Assembly: GCA_947601445.1 (NCBI GenBank)
Contig: CANQGD010000005.1
Location: 1 to 59,083 of the forward strand
Length of the DNA stretch: 59,083 nt
Direction: 5' to 3'
Origin: an uncultured Clostridia bacterium
GTDB lineage: Bacteria; Bacillota; Clostridia; Christensenellales; CAG-314
A program made the position numbers and the translations under genes. The notes under the pieces are model-generated. The model was not told the DNA's origin, made no database searches, and worked only from the letters and a program-made list of their open reading frames with translations. Of this stretch, positions 4,812-24,845 are shown piece by piece. Position 1 is the first letter of the stretch, and each line of letters begins with the position of its first letter.

Positions 4812-5459
4812 TCAGTCCTTAAATCGGTTGAGAACTACCACTTTGGTAGGCAATTCGGGAAGGTCGGACAAAATCAACGTGTCGGAGCCGTCGTTCGTTA
4901 TCGAAGCGGGGGCGAACAAAGCAAGAAACTTGTCGACGCCGTCCACATCGAAATTGTGTTCCGACGTTTTGTAGTGCATCGGCACCACTATCTTGGGACG
5001 AACGGCATCCACGTATCGTTTTGCACCCTGCGCGTCCACGGTAAAAGTGCCGCCCACGGGAATCAGAAGCACATCGCAATCGCGTATTTTTTCAACGACG
5101 TTTTCATCGAAACAACCAATGTCTCCCATATGCACCGCTTTTAACCCGTCCAAAGCAAAGGTAAACACCAAATTTTTACCCCGTTCCGCCCCTTTGGCGT
5201 TGTCGTGAAAAGTGGAAATGCTGTCTATGGCAATGTCGTCGGCGGTACAGGTGATTTGCTCGTCCAATACCGCGGGATTGCCCAAGACGCCGTCCATACA
5301 GTCGTGATCGCCGTGATGATGCGAAACGGTGACTACGTCGCACCTGACGGGAGTCATTTCGAAGCCGACCCAATCCGCCTTGTAAGGGTCGGTAACCACC
5401 GTAGTGCCCATATCGCTGATAATTCTGAAACTCGCGTGTCCCAAATACTGTAATTTCAC
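4812..5459 (-). CDS. MBL-fold metallo-hydrolase (Lactamase_B_3/UlaG-like)
   Basis: YLGHASF, SHHHGDHD, HMGD and PMHY motifs; GTG start with GGAGG SD. Confidence 0.85.
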   Translation of the reverse strand: MKLQYLGHASFRIISDMGTTVVTDPYKADWVGFEMTPVRCDVVTVSHHHGDHDCMDGVLGNPAVLDEQITCTADDIAIDSISTFHDNAKGAERGKNLVFTFALDGLKAVHMGDIGCFDENVVEKIRDCDVLLIPVGGTFTVDAQGAKRYVDAVRPKIVVPMHYKTSEHNFDVDGVDKFLALFAPASITNDGSDTLILSDLPELPTKVVVLNRFKD

Positions 5460-5748
5460 TTTGCGCCTCCCAAACGGTTATATTTACATTTTAAGCCAAT
5501 GGGGCTGATTTGTCAACGCGGCAGAGCCGACATATCCGCGCAAATTAGCGTTTTGAAATATTTTTTTTCTGTCGAGCGAACACGTCGGCGCGTTTGACAT
5601 TTTTTTGCCGCTCTTTGCAAAAGCAATTTGAAAAAATTGTAGATTTTTTTTCGTATATCTGCTATAATGATATTGATTGTACGACAGGGAAATTTTTCTC
5701 TGTCTTAAAACGGCACCCATTGCCGTTTTGTGTAGTAACGGAGGTTAT

Positions 5749-6762
5749 ATGAAGGCTTGGATATTGGAAGAACCTCGAAAATTGAAGCTGACAGAATCTG
5801 CACCCACCGAGATTGATGAAAACCATATAAAAGTAAAAATCGAAGAGGTGTTGATAACCAACTCCGACTTTGAAGTGTACACCGGCGCAAGCAAACGAAA
5901 ATATCCCTTTATTATAGGCAGAAACGCTGTGGGCGTGGTTTCGAAAGTGCCGGGGAACAATCCGTTTTTCAACAAAATGGATCGCGTGGCGATCGAACCG
6001 TACATTCCCTGCGAGGCGTGCGACGAGTGTAAAAACGATGAATACGAAAAATGCTCCAACATGCAGGAATTGGGCTACAACTGCAACGGTCTGCTGCAAA
6101 ACTTTATCGATTTGCCCTACTCTCTGCTGCACCGCTTGCCGGAAAAACTCAAAACGGAAAAGGCTCTGTTTGTACCGTATGTCGCTTTTTGCCTGAACGT
6201 TATCGACGCGCTCAATCTCGAAAAGGGACGGCATATTGCGATATTTTCCTCCACAAAAACGGGATTGATACTCGCTCAATTGGTTACATATTATCAAGCG
6301 GTGCCCGTGTTTATCAGCAATCGCGAAGAACTGCTGGATACGGCAAGAGGTTTGGGCATATTTTACAGCTTCAACCCGGAAACGGTAGACGTGGAAAACG
6401 AAATTCTCGCCATAACGGGCGGAAGAATGTGCAACGAATTGGTACTGTTTTCCAATTCCGACTTCAATATGAAAGACGTGTACAACGTGGCGGCGACAAA
6501 TGCGAATATTTGTTTGGCGGGCTACTCCAACAAGGAAAGCAAGCTGTCCGTTGCGCAAATATGCAAAAAACATCTGAATATATTCGGCGTGTACAACGGC
6601 GCGGGGAGTTACTCCTCGGCAATAAATCTGCTGGTGACGGATACCGTGAACGTGGACGCATTGATAGGAAAAACCGTTCCTTTTGACAAATTGGACGAGG
6701 AACTCGCCAAAACGACCGCAGAAGAACTTGTACTGAAATCGAAAATAGTAAAAATCGGCTGA
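5749..6762 (+). CDS. Zinc-binding MDR (sorbitol/threonine dehydrogenase-like) fold protein with a degenerate active site
   Basis: ATG 5749 after GGAGG; retains the structural Zn motif CxxCxxCx7C and the overall MDR layout; catalytic motifs are altered (see findings). Confidence 0.8.
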   Translation: MKAWILEEPRKLKLTESAPTEIDENHIKVKIEEVLITNSDFEVYTGASKRKYPFIIGRNAVGVVSKVPGNNPFFNKMDRVAIEPYIPCEACDECKNDEYEKCSNMQELGYNCNGLLQNFIDLPYSLLHRLPEKLKTEKALFVPYVAFCLNVIDALNLEKGRHIAIFSSTKTGLILAQLVTYYQAVPVFISNREELLDTARGLGIFYSFNPETVDVENEILAITGGRMCNELVLFSNSDFNMKDVYNVAATNANICLAGYSNKESKLSVAQICKKHLNIFGVYNGAGSYSSAINLLVTDTVNVDALIGKTVPFDKLDEELAKTTAEELVLKSKIVKIG

Positions 6763-12561: not shown

Positions 12562-13577
12562 TAGCGAATTTTCGGGATCAATCCCACTTTACGGTACACT
12601 TTGGAAAGCGTTTTTTGAGCAATACAACTTGCTTTTTCCGCACCGTCTTTAAGTACGGATTCAAGATAACTCTTGTCTGCAAGCAATCGTTTTTGTTCTG
12701 CCTGTATGGGCTGTAAAACCGAAATAACGACGTCGGCAACGGCGTCCTTGAAAGTTCCGTAACCCTTGCCCTCAAACAAACGCTCCGCTTCGGCAACAGT
12801 CGTACCGCTCATCAACGAATAGATGTTCAAAAGATTGCTCACGCCCGGCTTGTTTGCGCTGTGATGTACGCAATGAACGTCGGTATCGCTGTCGGTAACC
12901 GCACGTCTCAATTTACGACGAATCGCGTCGGCGTCGTCGGTTAAAGACAGAACGGCGTTGTCGTTGGGATCGGATTTGGACATCTTTGCCGTGGGCTCCT
13001 GCAAACTTTTGATACTGCTTCCCGTCTTGGAAACGAGACACTCCGGTACAACAAACGTATCGGAATAGCGAGCGTTGAAGCGTTCGGCAATATCGCGAGT
13101 AAGTTCTACGTGCTGAACTTGATCTTTACCCACCGGCACATATTGAGTTTGATATAACAATATGTCGCTTGCCATCAATACTGGGTAGTTCATCAAACCC
13201 ATATTGATGTTGTCCGCATGCTTTCTCGACTTATCTTTAAACTGCGTCATGCGGTTCAGCTCTCCCACATAAGCAACCGTATCGAGAATCCAGGCGAGTT
13301 CCGCATGCTCGTGAACATGCGACTGAATAAACAGCGCGCTCTTATTCGGATCCAATCCGCATGCAATATAAAGCGCCACAAGATCCAACGTGTTTTTGCG
13401 CAACTCCGCAGGTACTTGTGCAACCGTCAACGAATGTAAATCAACTACACAAAACAGGCAGTCGTACTGCTCTTGCAACGGCGTCCAATTGCGAATAGCT
13501 CCGAGATAGTTACCCAAGGTTATTTTACCCGTGGGTTGCACGCCGGAAAATACTCTTTTTTTTGCCTCTTCTGCCAT
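12561..13577 (-). CDS. trpS: Tryptophan--tRNA ligase
   Basis: FSGVQPTG, TLGNYLGA, VPVGKDQVQH and KMSKS motifs; start set at ATG 13577 after GAGG. Confidence 0.97.
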   Translation of the reverse strand: MAEEAKKRVFSGVQPTGKITLGNYLGAIRNWTPLQEQYDCLFCVVDLHSLTVAQVPAELRKNTLDLVALYIACGLDPNKSALFIQSHVHEHAELAWILDTVAYVGELNRMTQFKDKSRKHADNINMGLMNYPVLMASDILLYQTQYVPVGKDQVQHVELTRDIAERFNARYSDTFVVPECLVSKTGSSIKSLQEPTAKMSKSDPNDNAVLSLTDDADAIRRKLRRAVTDSDTDVHCVHHSANKPGVSNLLNIYSLMSGTTVAEAERLFEGKGYGTFKDAVADVVISVLQPIQAEQKRLLADKSYLESVLKDGAEKASCIAQKTLSKVYRKVGLIPKIR

Positions 13578-13608
13578 AAAGTACCTCTTGCCCATTATAG
13601 TATTATTC

Positions 13609-13637
13609 AGTATACCATTGCCGAACGGCTTTGTCAA
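13609..13637 (-). promoter_or_regulatory. sigmaA promoter of the trpS operon
   Basis: TTGACA-17-TATACT with extended -10 (TGG), about 30 nt before the start. Confidence 0.7.
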
Positions 13638-13763
13638 GAACATAGCGGAGCAGTGTATGCACGGATAAACAGAGTTTATTACCCTGCTGACAAAAACCGA
13701 GTCGATATGCCTCAATAATCACCCCTTTGTAAATATGCGGCGCACATAAAATCATTTACGTAC

Positions 13764-18179: not shown

Positions 18180-18620
18180 ATGAACGAGGGCAATAAAACA
18201 AATCGTTTTCTACGCGGTGAAGAATTGTATCAAAGTGTGATAGGTGACGGCACGGGCGACGTACAAACGCTCGTCGGGCAATTGTTGATAGGACTTGGCT
18301 TCAAAAGCAAGCTGATTGGTACTCCGTTTTTGAAGGAGGCAATAATCTACCGCTACGAAAAGACGGACATCGCGCACGTAAGTTACGCCAACGATGTGTA
18401 TGCTTGTGTTGCAAACAATCTGCACTCCACCGCGAACCGCGTGGAACGTGCCATTCGCAACACAATATACGACTGTGCGCAATGCGGAAATTTGAGCGCG
18501 TTCGATGAATTGTTGCACGGACGAGTATCCTCTCCGGGATATATACCTTCCAACATAGAGTTAATCAGCAGCATAGTTACCTGGTTGCAGTTGGAAAAAG
18601 AAAGAGGTCACGTCAAGTAA
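18180..18620 (+). CDS. Stand-alone Spo0A C-terminal (DNA-binding) domain protein
   Basis: LGFKSKLIGTPFLKEAI, TANRVERAIRNTI and PSNIELI match the Spo0A_C HTH; no receiver domain. Confidence 0.8.
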   Translation: MNEGNKTNRFLRGEELYQSVIGDGTGDVQTLVGQLLIGLGFKSKLIGTPFLKEAIIYRYEKTDIAHVSYANDVYACVANNLHSTANRVERAIRNTIYDCAQCGNLSAFDELLHGRVSSPGYIPSNIELISSIVTWLQLEKERGHVK

Positions 18621-18649: not shown

Positions 18650-19258
18650 CTACGATTGTTTAAGCGCAACCGCTTTATCTGCATATTGTTGACATATACT
18701 TCCCAGCCAAATGACCAAAGAGGCAAAATCCGCAAATTCGGCGGAAGTTAAATCTTTTGTGACGGTTTCCTGCCCGTTTGGATAGTCGAAATACACCGTC
18801 ACGTCCGTTTCGCCGAATTGAACGGTTATTTCGCAAGGATTTTGCCCCGGCGCGGGATTTTTTTCATAAAGAGCTATCTCTATTTTATCCTCCGCACGGT
18901 AAACTTCACGCAATCTCCATCCGTTTGGCATAACCGAATCCCAAACGCTTTCCAGGCGTGTAGCGCGATAGTCCCGCTCAATTTCGGCAAACAGCGGAGA
19001 CTTTCCTTCTGCCGAAACCGTTTCGCGCAATTCGTTTCGTAAATTTCTGTCTTTTTTTGTCAAAAAGTAGGACAACAGCAGCATTGTTACGTCCACGGAA
19101 AGGCAAACAGGCAACCCTGCTATGAGCAGCAACGGCTCGCTTTGATAAATACCCAATCCCACCGCCAAAAAAATCAAAGAAACGCCTATGGCGCATAGCA
19201 TAGCTACGCCGACAGCCTTGACCTTTTTGTGAAATTTGTTGTAATCATTCTTGTTCAT
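18650..19258 (-). CDS. Hypothetical protein with two N-terminal TM helices
   Basis: 202-aa ORF overlapping the trxB stop codon (ATGA). Confidence 0.7.
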   Translation of the reverse strand: MNKNDYNKFHKKVKAVGVAMLCAIGVSLIFLAVGLGIYQSEPLLLIAGLPVCLSVDVTMLLLSYFLTKKDRNLRNELRETVSAEGKSPLFAEIERDYRATRLESVWDSVMPNGWRLREVYRAEDKIEIALYEKNPAPGQNPCEITVQFGETDVTVYFDYPNGQETVTKDLTSAEFADFASLVIWLGSICQQYADKAVALKQS

Positions 19259-20163
19259 CGTTTAATTCCATCAACATATCGGGCGGCGTTGATACCCGCC
19301 ACCGCACCGTCTCCCACAGCAGTTGCACATTGGCGAATTGCTTTGGTACGGCAATCTCCGGCGGCGAATATGCCGTCGCAGCTTGTTTTGCAATCCTCAC
19401 CGGCAACAATATAGCCCTGACCGTCCGATTGCACGATTTCCGAAAAAAGTTCATTGTGCGGTTCTTGCCCTATTGCCACAAATACGGCGTCGCAGTCAAG
19501 ATAGGTCACCGCGCCGTCGGCGTCCCTATATACCGCGCCGCTAACGCAATCGTCACCGACGATCTCCGTAACGCACGCGTTTTTGATCCATTCTATGCGA
19601 CCGTCCGAAGAAATTCTGTCGGTCAACTTTTTGTCACAAAAAAGTTTGTCGAACATGGTAAGTAAATGCACTTCTTTGCAAATATCCGCAAGATAAAGCG
19701 CATATTGGGCGGCGCTGTTGCCGTCGCCTACCACGCACACGTGTTTATCTTTGTAAAATCCGCCGTCGCACACTGCGCAATAACATACGCCTTTGCCGAC
19801 AAGACGTTCTTCGCCCTCAACGTCGAGACTCTTGTGCGTTACTCCGCTTGCAATGACAACGGCAAGACACTCGTATCTGCCGTATTCCGTGGAAACGACA
19901 AAACCGCCGTCGGTTTTGTGTATCGACGCCCTTCCCATATCAAACTCTACCCCGCAAGAGGTAACTTGTTCAAACATATTGTTCGCAAGCGCCGCGCCGC
20001 TTGTTTCCTTTACCGAAGGGAAATTTTCCACCCGTGGAGCTGTTGCGATTTGTCCGCCGAAAGCGTCGGACTCCAACAACATAACCTTTTTACCTGCACG
20101 CGCCGCATATAGCGAGGCGGTAAGTCCCGCAGGGCCACCGCCTATAACCACAATATCATACAT
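19255..20163 (-). CDS. trxB: Thioredoxin reductase-family flavoprotein with atypical nucleotide-binding motifs
   Basis: GGGPAG, GGQ, ENFP, CAVCDG and GIFAAGDC motifs. Confidence 0.85.
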   Translation of the reverse strand: MYDIVVIGGGPAGLTASLYAARAGKKVMLLESDAFGGQIATAPRVENFPSVKETSGAALANNMFEQVTSCGVEFDMGRASIHKTDGGFVVSTEYGRYECLAVVIASGVTHKSLDVEGEERLVGKGVCYCAVCDGGFYKDKHVCVVGDGNSAAQYALYLADICKEVHLLTMFDKLFCDKKLTDRISSDGRIEWIKNACVTEIVGDDCVSGAVYRDADGAVTYLDCDAVFVAIGQEPHNELFSEIVQSDGQGYIVAGEDCKTSCDGIFAAGDCRTKAIRQCATAVGDGAVAGINAARYVDGIKR

Positions 20164-20172
20164 AAAATTCGC

Positions 20173-22536
20173 CTACTTGATGCCTTCGATGTACTTGCGT
20201 ACATTGGAGGCGTTTTCATATACTTTGTAACTGTCTCCGTCCGCGACAATGAGCGTGGGAGTAAGTTTTATTTGAAATTTCTTGGAAAGATCGGAATTTT
20301 GCATGGCGTCTATCTCTTCGACGTCGAGATTGGCTTTGTGCAACATCAACTCCGCCATTTTACAGTTGGGACAATTTTCCTGTACAAACAGCAGTGGTCT
20401 GAGTAAACATGCAGACGCTTTTTCTTCTTCCTTCTCGTGAACAACAAGACATTTCTTTTGTACGCTGCGCTCCGGTTCGTAAGTTTTGCGATCCTTCCAC
20501 TCCTGCGCTTTGCCGTCGTTCCAATTTTGCACCGGACGGTAATAACCCGTTATGCGGCTGTAAACCTCCGTCTTTTGGTGGCAATGCGGACACTCGTACT
20601 GTTCTCCCGCAAGGTATCCGTGATCCGGACAAACGGAATAGGTGGGCGACAACGTATAATAAGGCAAGCGATAATTTTCCGCTATCGTGCGAACCAATTT
20701 CATCGCCGATTTCCAATCGGGAAGCCGCTCACCGAGAAATCCGTGGAAAACCGTTCCGGAAGTGTACAGCGTTTGCAATTCGTCCTGAATGTCCAGCGCG
20801 TCGAAAATATCATAGGTATAGCTGACGGGCAAGTGCGAGCTGTTGGTATAGTAGGGCGTTTCTCCTTTGCGTCCGGCAAAAATCATATCCGGATACAATT
20901 TGGCATCGTGCTTTGCAAGACGGTACGCGGTAGATTCGGCGGGAGTAGCTTCGAGATTGTACAAATCACCGTATTTTTCCTGATAATCGGAAAGACGCTC
21001 GCGCATGTGATTGAGTACCTTTTTGGTGAAAATCTGCGCACGGGAATCGGTCATATCACAGGCAATCCAACGGGCATTGAGACACGCCTCGTTCATACCT
21101 ACAAGTCCGATAGTGGAAAAGTGATTGTCAAACGTGCCCAAATACCGTTTTGTATAAGGGTACAAGCCCGCTTCCATAAGTTTTGTTACGGTTGTGCGCT
21201 TTATTTTGAGAGAACGCGCGGCGATATCCATCATTTTGTCCAAACGGGCAAAAAATTCTTCTTCCGTTTTGCTCAAATATCCGATTCGGGGCATATTGAT
21301 GGTCACGACTCCGACAGATCCCGTTGATTCGCCGCTTCCGAAGAAACCGCCGCTCTTTTTGCGGAGTTCTCTCAAATCCAAACGCAGACGACAGCACATA
21401 CTGCGCACATCGCTCGGCTCCATATCGCTGTTGATATAGTTGCTGAAATAGGGAGTACCGTATTTTGCGGTCATTTCAAACAGCAGTTTGTTGTTTTCCG
21501 TTTCGCTCCAATCGAAATCTTTGGTAATCGAATAGGTAGGAATGGGATATTGAAATCCGCGTCCGTTGTAGTCGCCTTCTATCATGGTTTCGATAAACGC
21601 GCGGTTTATCATATCCATTTCCTTTTTGCAGTCCTTGTAACGGAAAGGCATTTCTTTTCCGCCTACAATGCAGTGCAGCTCGGCGAGGTCGTTGGGTACC
21701 GTCCAATCCAACGTAATGTTGGAAAAGGGCGCCTGAGTACCCCAACGGCTGGGAATATTTACACCGTAAATAAAGGATTCGATACATTTTTTTGTTTCTT
21801 CGTAACTCAGATTGTCCGCCTTTACAAACGGCGCAAGATAAGTATCGAAAGAGCTGAACGCCTGTGCGCCCGCCCACTCGTTTGCCATGATACCGATAAA
21901 GTTGACCATCTGATTGCACAAAGTGGCAAGGTGTTTGGCGGGTGCGGAAGTAATTTTGCTCGTTACTCCTCCCAATCCCTCCTGAATCAGCTGTTTGAGG
22001 GACCAACCGGCACAATATCCGCTAAGCATGCCCAAATCGTGAATGTGCAACGCGCCGCTGCGATGAGCTTCCGAAATTTCTTCGTCATAAACTTCGCTCA
22101 GCCAATAATTTGCCGTGATTGCACCGCTGTTGCTGAGGATCAGTCCGCCTACCGAATAGGTAACGGTGCTGTTTTCCTTAACGCGCCAATCGGCAATTTT
22201 CAAATAATTATCCACAACCGACTTGTAGTCCAAAAAAGTTTCGTTTGCGCGGCGCGCGTTTTCGTGCGATTTGCGATACAGAATATACGCTTTGGCAACG
22301 TCCGCGTAACCCGCTTGTATCAAAACCGTTTCCGCGCTGTCCTGAATGTCCTCTACGGAAATAATTCCGTCGGTTACTTTGTCCAAAAAGTCCGCAGTCA
22401 CTTTGAGCGCAAGCATATCTATCACGTCCTGACTGTAAGGCTTTTTGCAACCTTCGAAAGCGGCTTTGAGCGCGTCGCTTATTTTTGAAAGTTTGAAGTC
22501 GATGATCTGACCGTTTCTTTTCTTTACCTGATACAT
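20173..22536 (-). CDS. nrdD: Anaerobic (class III) ribonucleoside-triphosphate reductase with N-terminal ATP cone and C-terminal CPNC redoxin-like domain
   Basis: VKKRNG ATP cone; HIHDL; YCAGW; SMCCRL; TPAES; CxxH/CxxC Zn site; YSRITGYY glycyl-radical motif. Confidence 0.95.
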   Translation of the reverse strand: MYQVKKRNGQIIDFKLSKISDALKAAFEGCKKPYSQDVIDMLALKVTADFLDKVTDGIISVEDIQDSAETVLIQAGYADVAKAYILYRKSHENARRANETFLDYKSVVDNYLKIADWRVKENSTVTYSVGGLILSNSGAITANYWLSEVYDEEISEAHRSGALHIHDLGMLSGYCAGWSLKQLIQEGLGGVTSKITSAPAKHLATLCNQMVNFIGIMANEWAGAQAFSSFDTYLAPFVKADNLSYEETKKCIESFIYGVNIPSRWGTQAPFSNITLDWTVPNDLAELHCIVGGKEMPFRYKDCKKEMDMINRAFIETMIEGDYNGRGFQYPIPTYSITKDFDWSETENNKLLFEMTAKYGTPYFSNYINSDMEPSDVRSMCCRLRLDLRELRKKSGGFFGSGESTGSVGVVTINMPRIGYLSKTEEEFFARLDKMMDIAARSLKIKRTTVTKLMEAGLYPYTKRYLGTFDNHFSTIGLVGMNEACLNARWIACDMTDSRAQIFTKKVLNHMRERLSDYQEKYGDLYNLEATPAESTAYRLAKHDAKLYPDMIFAGRKGETPYYTNSSHLPVSYTYDIFDALDIQDELQTLYTSGTVFHGFLGERLPDWKSAMKLVRTIAENYRLPYYTLSPTYSVCPDHGYLAGEQYECPHCHQKTEVYSRITGYYRPVQNWNDGKAQEWKDRKTYEPERSVQKKCLVVHEKEEEKASACLLRPLLFVQENCPNCKMAELMLHKANLDVEEIDAMQNSDLSKKFQIKLTPTLIVADGDSYKVYENASNVRKYIEGIK

Positions 22537-22594
22537 TTTTCCTCCGTGGCGCTCTCTCTAAAAACTTTTCTCGTTTTTTAGGGGGAGCCTTTTT

Positions 22595-22624
22595 ATTGTA
22601 GCAAAAGTCAGTGGTTTTTGTCAA
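22595..22624 (-). promoter_or_regulatory. nrdD sigmaA promoter
   Basis: TTGACA-18-TACAAT with TG extension. Confidence 0.6.
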
Positions 22625-22632
22625 TGGCTTAA

Positions 22633-22680
22633 ACACAATATATTGTGTTAGTTTTTCACTTTTGACACAACATATAGTAT
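22633..22680. promoter_or_regulatory. Tandem NrdR boxes
   Basis: ACACAATATATTGTGT (22633-22648) and ACACAACATATAGTAT (22665-22680), starts 32 bp apart, matching the consensus acaCwAtATaTwGtgt upstream of nrdD. Confidence 0.9.
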
Positions 22681-22764
22681 GTCACACATAACTCGATATT
22701 TTCGGAAACAAAAGCCGATTTCAATGTAAAAAATAAAGCGCAACCGAAAAGAACTTAATAATTT

Positions 22765-22875
22765 ATAAAAGAAAGACGACCGTACGGTCGCCTTTCATGA
22801 AGGAGGGTTTCGGTTAGAATATCATAAAATGGAGGAGGAATTCTATTTCACAGAATACCTGTGAATTCTAAACCT
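22765..22875 (-). ncRNA. Candidate trans-acting sRNA with two C-rich anti-SD motifs
   Basis: Has its own promoter; contains CCTCCTCC and CCCTCCTT; terminator GAAAGGCGACC-GTAC-GGTCGTCTTTC-TTTT; no ORF. Confidence 0.65.
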
Positions 22876-22880
22876 TAATT

Positions 22881-22909
22881 AGTATAGCATTACACAGAAG
22901 CAATGTCAA
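22881..22909 (-). promoter_or_regulatory. sigmaA promoter of the candidate sRNA
   Basis: TTGACA-17-TATACT with extended TG. Confidence 0.7.
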
Positions 22910-22994
22910 TACCTAAGTTTGCGAACGAATCGGACTATTTTTTCGCCAATAGGAAAAATTCCGTTATGTTGACAAATTAAAATATCCTTTCCGC

Positions 22995-23180
22995 TTACTG
23001 TTCTACCTCTATTGCGTTTACGGGACAAATTTCCGCCGCCTCATAAGTTTTATCGGGAAAGTCGCCGGGATCGCCGACGGCGTCGGAAAAGCCGTCCGCA
23101 CCTATTTCGAATACTTCGGGACACACATCCACGCACATACCGCAACCTATACAATCGTCTTTTTTTACAAACGCTTTCAT
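22995..23180 (-). CDS. Monocluster ferredoxin (61 aa)
   Basis: CIGCGMC...CP...CPVNAI; ATG 23180 after GGAGG. Confidence 0.9.
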   Translation of the reverse strand: MKAFVKKDDCIGCGMCVDVCPEVFEIGADGFSDAVGDPGDFPDKTYEAAEICPVNAIEVEQ

Positions 23181-23360
23181 GATTACCTCCGAAAAAGTAG
23201 TAGTATTACTATTGTAGCCCGTCGAAAAACAAAACAAACTCCGATTTTATATAATCGTCTCGTTATTTGACGAAACAATCACCGAAAACAGTCGTCCGTC
23301 AGCCGATCGCAAAGCGTTTTTTTTGCATAAATCATGATATAGGCGCAAAGCTCTGCATCT

Positions 23361-24845
23361 TTAATATTTCGAATATTTGTCTATTAAATAATTTACGTAG
23401 TAATCGGGTTCGAAATCTTCTCCCGTTGCAAGTCGAAGAATTTCGTCGGGATACTTACTTGCACCGTATTTGTGTACGTGTTCCCCGAGCCAATCGTTGA
23501 TTTGCTTGGTGTTGCCGCTTGAAAGACTTTGTTCGACGTCGAAATCTTTGTTCATACTGTGATACAGTTGCGCGGCAATAGCGCTGCCCAAGGCGTAAGT
23601 GGGGAAATAACCGAAATTGCCGTATGCCCAATGTACGTCTTGCAGTACGCCGAGAGTGTCGTTGGGCGGAGTAATGCCGAAATATTCGGTAAATTTTTCC
23701 TTCCAATACAACGGAAGATTTTTTACTTCCAATTCTCCGGAAATAAGTTTTTGTTCGATTTCATAACGCAACATAATGTGCAAAGGATAGGTAAGTTCAT
23801 CCGCCTCTGTACGCACAAAACTTGCCTCTGTTCTGTTTATAAACCGCACAAATTCCTCGCAAGACACGTTGTCCAACTGCGGAGCGAATATCTGTTGCAA
23901 CTTGCCGAAATGCGTTTGCCAAAACGCGAAACTGCGTCCTATCATATTTTCATAAAAACGCGACTGGCTTTCGTGCAGTCCGAGACTCGCGCCGCCGCTA
24001 CAAAACGTCCCGTTGAGAGACGGATCGCATTGTCGCTCATATATTGCGTGCCCCGTTTCGTGTATAACCGAAAAAACGGAAGAAATCAAATTGTCCTCGT
24101 AGTAATGCGTAGTTATGCGAACGTCGGTTGTCCCCATACCGGAAGTAAAGGGATGCTCGCTTTCCTTCATAATCCCGAAATTTTTGTCAAAACACATTAC
24201 GTCGCGGATATACTCGCAAAATTCTTTTTGCTTTGCCTTGTCGAACTTTTGTCGCGCCCATTGAGGTACGGGGGAGATTTTCGCCGTTTTTTTCTTTACG
24301 AACGGAACCAATTTTTCTCGTAGCGTTTCGAAAAATTTGTCGTATTTCGCCTGTGTGTAGCGCGGCTCGTATTGATCCAAAAGCACATCGTAGCCTTTCA
24401 GGCTCTCGGTCGCCAACCAAACCGTTTGTTTGCGGCAAAAATCCACTATGCGTTCCAAATAGGGCAAAAACAGTTCAAAATTGTTCGTTTGCTTGGCTTG
24501 CACATACACAGGATACGCTTTGGCGGTAAGCTCGTTGAAAGCAACATATTCCTTTATCGGTATCCTCTTGGTGTTTTGAATGTTTTTATTCGTCACCTCT
24601 ATTTCGTGACGCAACTCGTCGCTCAATTGCTCACGTTCTTTGTAAAGAACGTTTACGCAACGCTCGAAATCAGGGTCCGTTGTGAGTTTGTATTGCATTT
24701 CCGAAAGGGTTGCGTTGTACACGCTGTTTGCGGAAACGCTCCCCGGCGCGGCGTCCGTTTGTGCGTCCCATTCGGTCAGAAAGTCGACATATTGAAAAGC
24801 TAAAATCTTTTTGCGCTGTTCAAAGTAAAATTCAAGTTCTTTCAC
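23361..24845 (-). CDS. Carboxypeptidase, M32 family
   Basis: HPF, HETGH, HESQSR, RTEADE, QDVHW and GYFPTY motifs. Confidence 0.95.
   Translation of the reverse strand: MKELEFYFEQRKKILAFQYVDFLTEWDAQTDAAPGSVSANSVYNATLSEMQYKLTTDPDFERCVNVLYKEREQLSDELRHEIEVTNKNIQNTKRIPIKEYVAFNELTAKAYPVYVQAKQTNNFELFLPYLERIVDFCRKQTVWLATESLKGYDVLLDQYEPRYTQAKYDKFFETLREKLVPFVKKKTAKISPVPQWARQKFDKAKQKEFCEYIRDVMCFDKNFGIMKESEHPFTSGMGTTDVRITTHYYEDNLISSVFSVIHETGHAIYERQCDPSLNGTFCSGGASLGLHESQSRFYENMIGRSFAFWQTHFGKLQQIFAPQLDNVSCEEFVRFINRTEASFVRTEADELTYPLHIMLRYEIEQKLISGELEVKNLPLYWKEKFTEYFGITPPNDTLGVLQDVHWAYGNFGYFPTYALGSAIAAQLYHSMNKDFDVEQSLSSGNTKQINDWLGEHVHKYGASKYPDEILRLATGEDFEPDYYVNYLIDKYSKY

Follow-up and report, generated by a model that had tools for sequence, protein, structure and literature searches.

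The table in PMC9176816 groups class III ribonucleotide reductases (RNRs) by the reductant that they use, NrdD1 relying on formate, NrdD2 on thioredoxin and NrdD3 on an NrdH-like redoxin. The enzyme of Neisseria bacilliformis is reported to be reduced by thioredoxin and that of Thermotoga maritima to need a protein factor (Aurelius et al. 2015; PMC4493059), and the NrdD3 of Methanosarcina barkeri is described together with an NrdH-like redoxin and a ferredoxin:disulfide reductase (PMC9176816); NrdD3 enzymes are given in PMC9669993 as having neither the finger-loop Met nor the active-site Glu. The locus described here lies in a stretch of 59,083 nt, hereafter the window, from the genome of an uncultured Clostridia bacterium (contig CANQGD010000005.1 of assembly GCA_947601445.1; GTDB lineage Christensenellales, CAG-314). 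It consists of nrdD, encoding a class III RNR with a redoxin domain fused to its C-terminus, and of trxR, encoding a homologue of low-Mr thioredoxin reductase (TrxR). As interpreted below, this module combines known kinds of element, namely NrdD2-like thiol reduction, a redoxin fusion and an NADPH-independent TrxR, and is not a new category.

When compared to the NrdD2 enzymes of N. bacilliformis and T. maritima, the NrdD of the window shares a finger loop with two neighbouring Cys, an active-site Glu and, as proposed here, the use of a protein thiol in place of formate, but it reads MCCR instead of SCCR, has the redoxin fused to its C-terminus and is followed 9 bp downstream by the gene of a TrxR devoid of the NADPH-binding arginines. 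The likeness to the M. barkeri NrdD3 system is one of concept, electrons passing there from ferredoxin to a disulfide reductase, a small redoxin and a class III RNR, and the genes of the helper proteins being neighbours of nrdD; in M. barkeri the redoxin is reportedly a separate protein and dependence on ferredoxin is reported to have been demonstrated, whereas here it is hypothetical. Redoxin domains fused to RNR subunits are known as well. In Facklamia ignava, the glutaredoxin fused to NrdB acts as the RNR reductant (Rozman Grinberg et al. 2018; PMC6187632), and the RefSeq survey of the same paper names a single grx::nrdD fusion that is not studied there. The present fusion differs from these in that it sits at the C-terminus of NrdD, occurs widely and is accompanied by a TrxR gene. 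Finally, flavin thioredoxin reductases that depend on ferredoxin (FFTRs) and the frequency in Clostridia of TrxB proteins without NADPH motifs are treated in PMC10880999 and PMC8154056; the clostridial FFTRs (Protein Data Bank, PDB, 6gna and 6gnc) and the cyanobacterial FFTR/DTR (5j60 and 6xtf) have in common with the TrxR of the window the low-Mr TrxR fold, FAD, a CxxC motif and the lack of HRRxxxR. A literature search found no paper on an nrdD::redoxin-trxR module, on the three TrxR states described below or on the clade designated GD; related cases may be listed in Table S1 of PMC6187632 and Fig. S1 of PMC10880999.

The explanation that best accounts for the locus as a whole, with a probability that we put at ca. 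0.6, is that this NrdD is re-reduced by protein thiols, instead of or besides formate. Assignment of the nrdD product to class III RNRs is based on family profiles (PF13597, 630 bits for a cut-off of 26.2; NF006126, 1112 for 548; TIGR02487, 507.6 for 326), on an NRDD domain (aa 121-686, E 4e-189) preceded by an ATP-cone, and on the occurrence of the glycyl-radical motif RITGYY, a Zn-ribbon, the finger loop SMCCRL and the motif GYCAGW (Table 1). The latter contains Cys175 and is aligned with the region of the first-strand Cys of the Prevotella copri NrdD (8p23), which according to the 8p23 paper is the second of the cysteines in the radical mechanism. The Glu of TPAES is, from the position of the motif, the putative proton donor equivalent to the active-site Glu of NrdD2. 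In the genome, nrdD is the sole NrdD-family match, and an nrdG gene for an NrdG2-type activase is found unlinked to it (TIGR02495, 212.5 bits for a cut-off of 131; contig C14, positions 13150-13707).

The C-terminal domain of this NrdD is a redoxin of the thioredoxin fold, with a CPNC motif and the cis-Pro TPTL. When the last 88 aa were scanned alone, they passed the Pfam cut-offs of both Thioredoxin (25.8 bits for a cut-off of 23.5) and Glutaredoxin (25.8 for 22.9), and inside the whole NrdD the domain stayed just under them; a Glutaredoxin match was obtained for 16/16 aligned homologues of the domain. A profile of it compared to the PDB retrieved glutaredoxin-like proteins or protein disulfide oxidoreductases (E ca. 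3e-11), small archaeal thioredoxins and NrdH. When proteins were searched with the last 100 residues, all 95 matches were NrdD proteins, of 774-840 aa save for one fragment of 479 aa. The initial annotation, made from the letters of the window, had listed SMCCRL, TPAES and the CPNC domain, as well as a TrxR gene 9 bp downstream encoding CAVC, GDGNSA and TMFDKLF, and each of these features was recovered where it had been placed.

The proximity of the fused nrdD and of trxR is conserved far beyond the window. In the genus to which the window belongs, a fused nrdD is followed within 1 kb downstream by a TrxR gene in 24/24 loci (the window and 23 others), and of three further families in the same order with a fused NrdD, two have a TrxR gene next to nrdD and the third has none there. 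A scan of GTDB, with one genome per species and two peptide patterns derived from the TrxR alignment, gave at least 600 stretches of which at least 596 were confirmed by tblastn; the counts across species that follow refer to the best 80 of these confirmed TrxR loci. NrdD::redoxin is encoded directly upstream in 75, three loci are cut at a contig end, and two have 6 kb of upstream DNA but no NrdD. The two genes are separated by a median of 11 bp (150 bp or less in 68/75 loci), and nrdG lies within 400 bp in 42/75. Of the 70 fused NrdD open reading frames (ORFs) in which the loop is covered, 69 have SMCCRL and one SICCRL; TPAES is found in 74/75 and CPNC in 70/75. Judged by the titles of the records, most of the hosts are uncultured Clostridia (Christensenellaceae, Oscillospiraceae, Acutalibacteraceae) and metagenome-assembled Bacilli from the guts of animals and humans. 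The fused redoxin and the adjacent TrxR gene are a widespread and strongly conserved module. A thiol relay from TrxR to the fused redoxin and on to NrdD is highly probable, the direction of the electron flow being one that we infer. One genome of the same genus (G016) has no fused NrdD and only a distant NrdD, with ca. 29% identity in two segments; it does have a homologue of the single-cluster ferredoxin discussed below.

The TrxR of the window has FAD motifs and a CxxC, its recognizable motifs being GGGPAG, CAVC, GDGNSA, TMFDKLF and a C-terminal GDC, with CAVC and the GDGNSA and TMFDKLF motifs conserved in 25/25 aligned relatives of the same kind. It lacks HRRxxxR and GGGxxA, and its score on the equivalog of NADPH-dependent thioredoxin reductases (NTRs), TIGR01292, is 298.9 bits, under the cut-off of 343.45. 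In the alignment with PDB chains, GDGNSA stands opposite GGGDSA and TMFDKLF opposite HRRDQLR of a solved thioredoxin reductase. Because the three arginines that bind the NADPH phosphate are replaced, in a conserved fashion and by hydrophobic residues, the enzyme is most likely not a user of NADPH, and its independence of this donor is regarded here as likely.

Three classes of TrxR were distinguished among the 80 loci. In the first, HRR, the canonical NADPH type with GGG[ND]xA and IHRRDxFR is found (13 loci, 12 with NrdD upstream); in the second, QNL, GGGN[ST]A is combined with [VIL]QNLxxLT (29 loci, 28 with NrdD upstream); in the third, GD, to which the window belongs, the motifs are GD[GA]N[ST]A and xT[LM]FD[KR][FL]F (38 loci, 35 with NrdD upstream). 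The NrdD cores beside the three kinds of TrxR are 74-88% identical to that of the window. A co-occurrence of the GD variant with the NrdD-redoxin fusion, which the initial annotation had proposed as a check, is present in 35/38 GD loci. The QNL loci are among L069-L117 (29/80; protein P0127), and a solved chain named 'Thioredoxin reductase', 7jyp, reads VQNLPYLT at that site.

Since 12/75 of the linked TrxRs are of the HRR type, linkage to nrdD per se implies neither an unusual donor nor a role restricted to RNR. In addition, the linked TrxR is the only TrxR homologue (E<=1e-30) in 8 of the 12 genomes of the HRR class (G177-G188) and may thus also be the housekeeping, general thioredoxin reductase. 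The NADPH independence first proposed for this TrxR accordingly stands as far as the conserved loss of the three arginines is concerned, but does not extend to the linked TrxRs in general. It could also be that the GD TrxR is still a pyridine-nucleotide enzyme, taking NADH, or NADPH in a non-canonical manner, in which case the module would be an NrdD2-like thioredoxin/TrxR/NAD(P)H system with its redoxin fused. This is rather unlikely, in spite of several features that agree with it and weigh against a loss of pyridine-nucleotide use: GDGNSA in the window still matches the bare pattern GxGxxA, the NADPH-like domain has the full length of NTRs (302 aa for the protein vs 288-294 for FFTRs), among solved structures the closest are those of NAD(P)H enzymes (211 bits to NTR vs 137 and 122 to FFTR chains, and 127 to the Gloeobacter enzyme), and the GD clade is nested among nrdD-linked HRR and QNL TrxRs. 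Opposed to these are, besides the low TIGR01292 score and the conserved hydrophobic residues at the arginine positions, the central Gly of GxGxxA, which is Ala (GDANxA) in 25/38 GD loci, and, as we read the PDB alignment, the lack of an acidic residue after strand beta-2. NADH-specific Rossmann folds usually carry an acidic residue at this place.

A further similarity of the GD type with FFTRs is found at the HRR site, which reads LTMFDK in the GD type and IPMYK (6gnc) or LPLYK (L123) in FFTR-like proteins, a hydrophobic residue being followed in both by an aromatic one (MF vs MY or LY). FFTRs have GYTKEA in the region of GDGNSA, and those of clostridia lack both NAD(P)H motifs whereas in the GD type HRRxxxR is lost and GxGxxA is kept in GDGNSA but broken in those loci that have Ala. 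For phylogeny, the 150 best representatives of a library of 1.84 billion proteins were reduced by length (270-345 aa) to 133, which together with the loci were subsampled to 125 and then to 64 rows, from which an IQ-TREE 'quick' tree was computed; the FFTR-like rows were anchored by L123 (273 bits to 6gnc). All 20 rows with the GD motifs form one clade (SH-aLRT 99) that joins QNL (93); GD and QNL together group with the HRR types linked to nrdD (85), within NTR-like sequences, the clostridial FFTR-like group and a short 5nii-like group being on the far side with a support of 99 each. The best tree hence does not bear out the affinity with clostridial FFTRs to which the initial annotation had pointed. 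In approximately unbiased (AU) tests, joining GD with the FFTR-like rows gave a p of 0.45 and the control, QNL with FFTR-like, 0.54; as the long FFTR branch is left free to attach to GD or to QNL without significant cost, an origin of GD independent of FFTRs was not retained as proven. It is proposed that the GD clade may have arisen among nrdD-linked, NTR-like reductases.

The genome of the window (1.6 Mb in 59 contigs, 92% complete) was further searched for other means of reducing ribonucleotides and thiols. It yielded neither a pyruvate formate-lyase (PFL)-like protein nor a class I or II RNR large subunit nor a TrxR of the HRR type, so that the route from TrxR over the redoxin to NrdD is likely the one by which deoxyribonucleoside triphosphates (dNTPs) are made. 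A pyruvate:ferredoxin oxidoreductase (PFOR), one free thioredoxin and flavodoxin-like domains are present. Two TrxR-like genes were identified, each scoring under the NTR cut-off and lacking HRR: trxR and a further gene (contig C15, positions 5343-6212, minus strand) that has CATC, GGGRAA and, in place of HRRxxxR, VTTQSEF; the latter forms its own long branch in the trees and its best solved relatives are 4zn0 and 3cty.

The same was asked of 50 of the 75 module genomes, chosen before any result was obtained (12/12 HRR, 19/35 GD and 19/28 QNL). PFL over the cut-off was found in 5/12 HRR, 5/19 GD and 12/19 QNL genomes, that is in 22/50, and not found in 28/50; the fused NrdD therefore occurs both with and without PFL, and 14/19 GD genomes are among those without. 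In 5/19 of the GD genomes the GD TrxR is the sole TrxR, and 14 second TrxR-like genes in GD genomes comprise four with HRR, one with HRS and nine with neither motif. Judging from these motifs, most organisms of the GD type seem to be devoid of a canonical NTR.

The presence of PFL in 22/50 genomes weighs against a replacement of formate by thiols, as does the SMCCRL loop, in which the Met required for reduction by formate is kept. According to Burnim et al. 2022 (PMC9669993), a CC motif with Glu is tied to thioredoxin use, and a loop with MCCR and Glu has the parts for either formate or thioredoxin. The formate independence claimed in the initial annotation is hence not upheld as a property of the enzyme, which from its motifs might also use formate; in the organism of the window, independence of formate is likely. 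The assignment to the NrdD2 type stands for the CC pair and the Glu, and fails for the Met, the loop of N. bacilliformis being the Met-less SCCR. A further alternative is that formate is the reductant at turnover and that the redoxin and TrxR serve for protection or regulation, for instance by undoing an inhibitory disulfide after oxidative stress. Besides the loop and the distribution of PFL, it could call upon the unfused NrdDs of the same order, which are ca. 50% identical, share SMCCRL, have TPAEG and are accompanied by nrdG only. We nevertheless hold it to be improbable: PFL was found neither in the genome of the window nor in most of those sampled, and the near-universal pairing of the genes, their short spacing and the kept CPNC agree more with a stoichiometric partner than with a repair function called upon occasionally. 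The T. maritima NrdD was likewise reported to be inactive with formate and to need a protein factor (PMC4493059), but that enzyme is without the Met.

In the mechanism that would follow from re-reduction of NrdD by protein thiols, electrons would pass from the FAD of TrxR to the CAVC dithiol and from there to the CPNC disulfide of the redoxin tethered to the NrdD C-terminus. The redoxin domain would in turn reduce the active-site disulfide that would form at each turnover between Cys175 and one Cys of the finger loop. NrdG, encoded elsewhere, would install the glycyl radical, and the NrdR boxes (see below) and the ATP-cone would couple expression and activity to the dNTP pool. Lacking all three arginines by which the NADPH 2'-phosphate is held, the GD TrxR would draw its electrons from a low-potential carrier, either PFOR-reduced ferredoxin or flavodoxin.

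The identity of this donor is a matter of conjecture. A low-potential carrier is favoured by the occurrence of PFOR in the genome, by the similar replacement of the HRR site in FFTR-like proteins and by a ferredoxin gene, fdx, which in the genus lies by the module in two arrangements. Its product is a single-cluster ferredoxin of the Fer4_13/Fer4_15 Pfam type, whose Cys10, 13, 16, 20 and 52 are shared without exception by 11 homologues. When the 24 genomes of the genus with a fused nrdD were compared, fdx homologues were located directly upstream of nrdD in eight and downstream of trxR on the same strand in three (adjacent in two cases and 1.8 kb off in the other), so that fdx lies within ca. 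2 kb of the module in 11/24; in nine it is elsewhere or on another contig and in four it was not found. At two of the loci without an fdx homologue (L030 and L032, in G003 and G007), the TrxR reads LTWSNKLF and LTWSQKLF, not LT[LM]FDKLF; at the two others, L033 reads LTLFDRLF and L031 is partial, with no clear change.

The claim of the initial annotation that ferredoxin feeds the TrxR fares less well when these data are extended, and a set of findings counts against it. Outside the genus, a small Fe-S ORF is near 1/38 GD loci only, neither ferredoxin nor flavodoxin genes are conserved beside the module in the 80 loci examined, and a clustering of all neighbour genes across these loci gave nothing recurrent besides nrdG, nrdD and trxR. 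An fdx homologue was not found in 4/24 genomes of the genus nor in 10/19 sampled GD genomes. The replacement of Arg by Phe or Leu would moreover remove positive charge, which is unexpected for the docking of an acidic ferredoxin. A prediction of the complex from TrxR and ferredoxin alignments returned a score of 0.00 and no answer, and is uninformative on binding. That a ferredoxin is the donor of TrxR in vivo is consequently put forward as a possibility that we would not favour, and this particular ferredoxin as a more doubtful one.

That fdx is unrelated to TrxR, being a syntenic neighbour or else the reductant of the [4Fe-4S] cluster of NrdG, has in our estimate nearly an even chance. It is consistent with the promoter and terminator that stand between fdx and nrdD and give fdx a transcription context of its own, and with an adjacency limited to the genus; the eight upstream cases can be explained by shared descent since they occur in the closest relatives, with NrdDs 88-94% identical. 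Activases of glycyl radical enzymes need a low-potential donor, and the ferredoxin could equally serve NrdG. Less easily accommodated are the scarcity of such genes in the genome, where fdx is one of just two small ferredoxin ORFs (the other, of the 2x[4Fe-4S] type, is on contig 2), the second arrangement, downstream of trxR, and the distribution of fdx homologues (E<=1e-6), which occur in 9/19 GD, 2/12 HRR and 1/19 QNL genomes; for GD vs the others (3/31), a Fisher p of 0.005 was obtained, which ignores kinship and overstates the association.

A broader proposal, which is tentative, is that the GD enzymes are a separately evolved family of flavin TrxRs independent of pyridine nucleotides, derived from the nrdD-linked NTR lineage of Bacillota and wiring PFOR-reduced ferredoxin or flavodoxin into dNTP synthesis via the redoxin of NrdD. 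If true, the module would be a bacterial equivalent, based on flavin, of the archaeal chain of ferredoxin:disulfide reductase, NrdH and NrdD3. The M. barkeri reductase, that of Wei et al. 2015, is reportedly an Fe-S enzyme resembling ferredoxin:thioredoxin reductase and not a flavoprotein. The module would also be the only route to DNA precursors in many small-genome Clostridia and Bacilli of the gut, with no NADPH-linked thioredoxin system there, and thereby a possible point for selectively affecting the growth of these bacteria. The tethered redoxin-NrdD, present in hundreds of species, offers a system for the structure and kinetics of protein-thiol access to a buried class III active site. 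The series of HRR, QNL and GD enzymes beside near-identical NrdDs could show how the donor specificity of TrxRs shifts, and could reveal the reductant of thiol metabolism in abundant uncultured gut Bacillota seemingly without NADPH-type TrxR.

The coordinates of the locus are collected in Table 1. On the minus strand the order is fdx, a spacer of 458 bp, nrdD, a gap of 9 bp, trxR and orf202.

Table 1. Features of the nrdD::redoxin-trxR locus and of its surroundings (positions in the window)
Feature	Position (nt)	Strand	Evidence or remark
fdx, single-cluster [4Fe-4S]-type ferredoxin, 61 aa	22995-23180	minus	Fer4_13 E 8.9e-12; candidate donor
Orphan promoter (22909-22881) and intrinsic terminator (22796-22771)	22765-22909	minus	Bracket a predicted transcript of ca. 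100 nt
Tandem NrdR boxes	22633-22648 (0 mismatches) and 22665-22680 (2 mismatches)		32 bp centre to centre
nrdD promoter, TTGACA-18-TACAAT	22595-22624	minus	11/12 consensus positions
nrdD, class III ribonucleoside-triphosphate reductase with C-terminal redoxin fused, 787 aa	20173-22536	minus	ORF, Pfam, NCBIfam
ATP-cone, aa 3-92	22261-22530	minus	PF03477 E 6.5e-21
GYCAGW, aa 173-178, first-barrel-strand Cys175	22003-22020	minus	Aligned with P. copri NrdD chain 8p23
Finger loop SMCCRL, aa 379-384, Met and adjacent Cys pair	21385-21402	minus	
TPAES, aa 531-535, putative active-site Glu	20932-20946	minus	
Zn-ribbon CPDH...CPHC and glycyl-radical RITGYY (aa 661-666), aa 636-666	20539-20631	minus	Aligned with 8p23 C-terminal region
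C-terminal thioredoxin-fold domain, aa 711-787	20176-20406	minus	CPNC (aa 722-725) 20362-20373; cis-Pro TPTL 20251-20262
trxR, low-Mr thioredoxin-reductase homologue, GD type, 302 aa	19255-20163	minus	
CAVC of TrxR	19768-19779	minus	
GDGNSA of TrxR, aa 146-151	19711-19728	minus	Opposite GGGDSA
TMFDKLF of TrxR, aa 169-175	19639-19659	minus	Opposite HRRDQLR
orf202, predicted membrane protein, 202 aa	18650-19258	minus	No known family

The tandem NrdR boxes announced in the initial annotation were confirmed at 22633-22680. They are the only such 16-mers in the window and abut the -35 hexamer of the nrdD promoter. Their number alone is weak evidence since 17/100 shuffles also gave at least two matches anywhere in the window; they are credible because of their placement at the promoter and because a pair 31-32 bp apart is conserved in 21/22 nrdD upstream regions of the genus. 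A spacing of ca. three helical turns is that described for NrdR boxes in PMC9110341. With two palindromic boxes so spaced and nrdR itself in the genome (TIGR00244, 195.6 bits vs a cut-off of 124.65), nrdD has the marks of an NrdR regulon member.

The end of fdx and the start of nrdD are 458 bp apart, close to the ca. 460 bp given initially, and the terminator noted there between the two genes was found as well. It is preceded by an orphan promoter, TTGACA-17-TATACT with a TG extension (11/12 consensus positions), the strong terminator lying ca. 85-110 nt further on. The short RNA predicted between them has CCUCC-like C/U-rich stretches; its region shows 69-81% identity in only four close relatives (L012-L015) and a 28-nt match in L011. 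No Rfam family reached its gathering score in the whole window, and positions 22400-23500 gave a single sub-threshold match, to STnc430 on the opposite strand (28.6 bits vs 47), which was treated as due to chance.

Downstream of trxR, the ATG of orf202 overlaps the trxR stop codon (ATGA), and the two genes are possibly co-transcribed. The product of orf202 has hydrophobic N-terminal segments and gave no match in Pfam and NCBIfam scans. As homologues occur in only 2/23 other loci of the genus, orf202 is not part of the conserved module.

In one metatranscriptome run, near-identical contigs cover parts of orf202, trxR, nrdD and fdx; these may derive from DNA and do not demonstrate a single transcript, and the stretches that they leave uncovered (e.g. 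22525-22681 and 19071-19384) are uninformative. One contig (20094-20931, two differences) spans the nrdD stop and the trxR start, a weak hint that the two genes are co-transcribed, and another (22810-23071) extends from inside fdx to just short of the terminator. Two further runs of the same study had next to none of the sampled words.

Finally, an ORF of 146 aa on the plus strand next to orf202 (18180-18620) lacks a receiver domain and resembles Spo0A in its C-terminal DNA-binding domain only (PF08769, E 2.5e-15), covering positions 142-260 of the 262 of TIGR02875.

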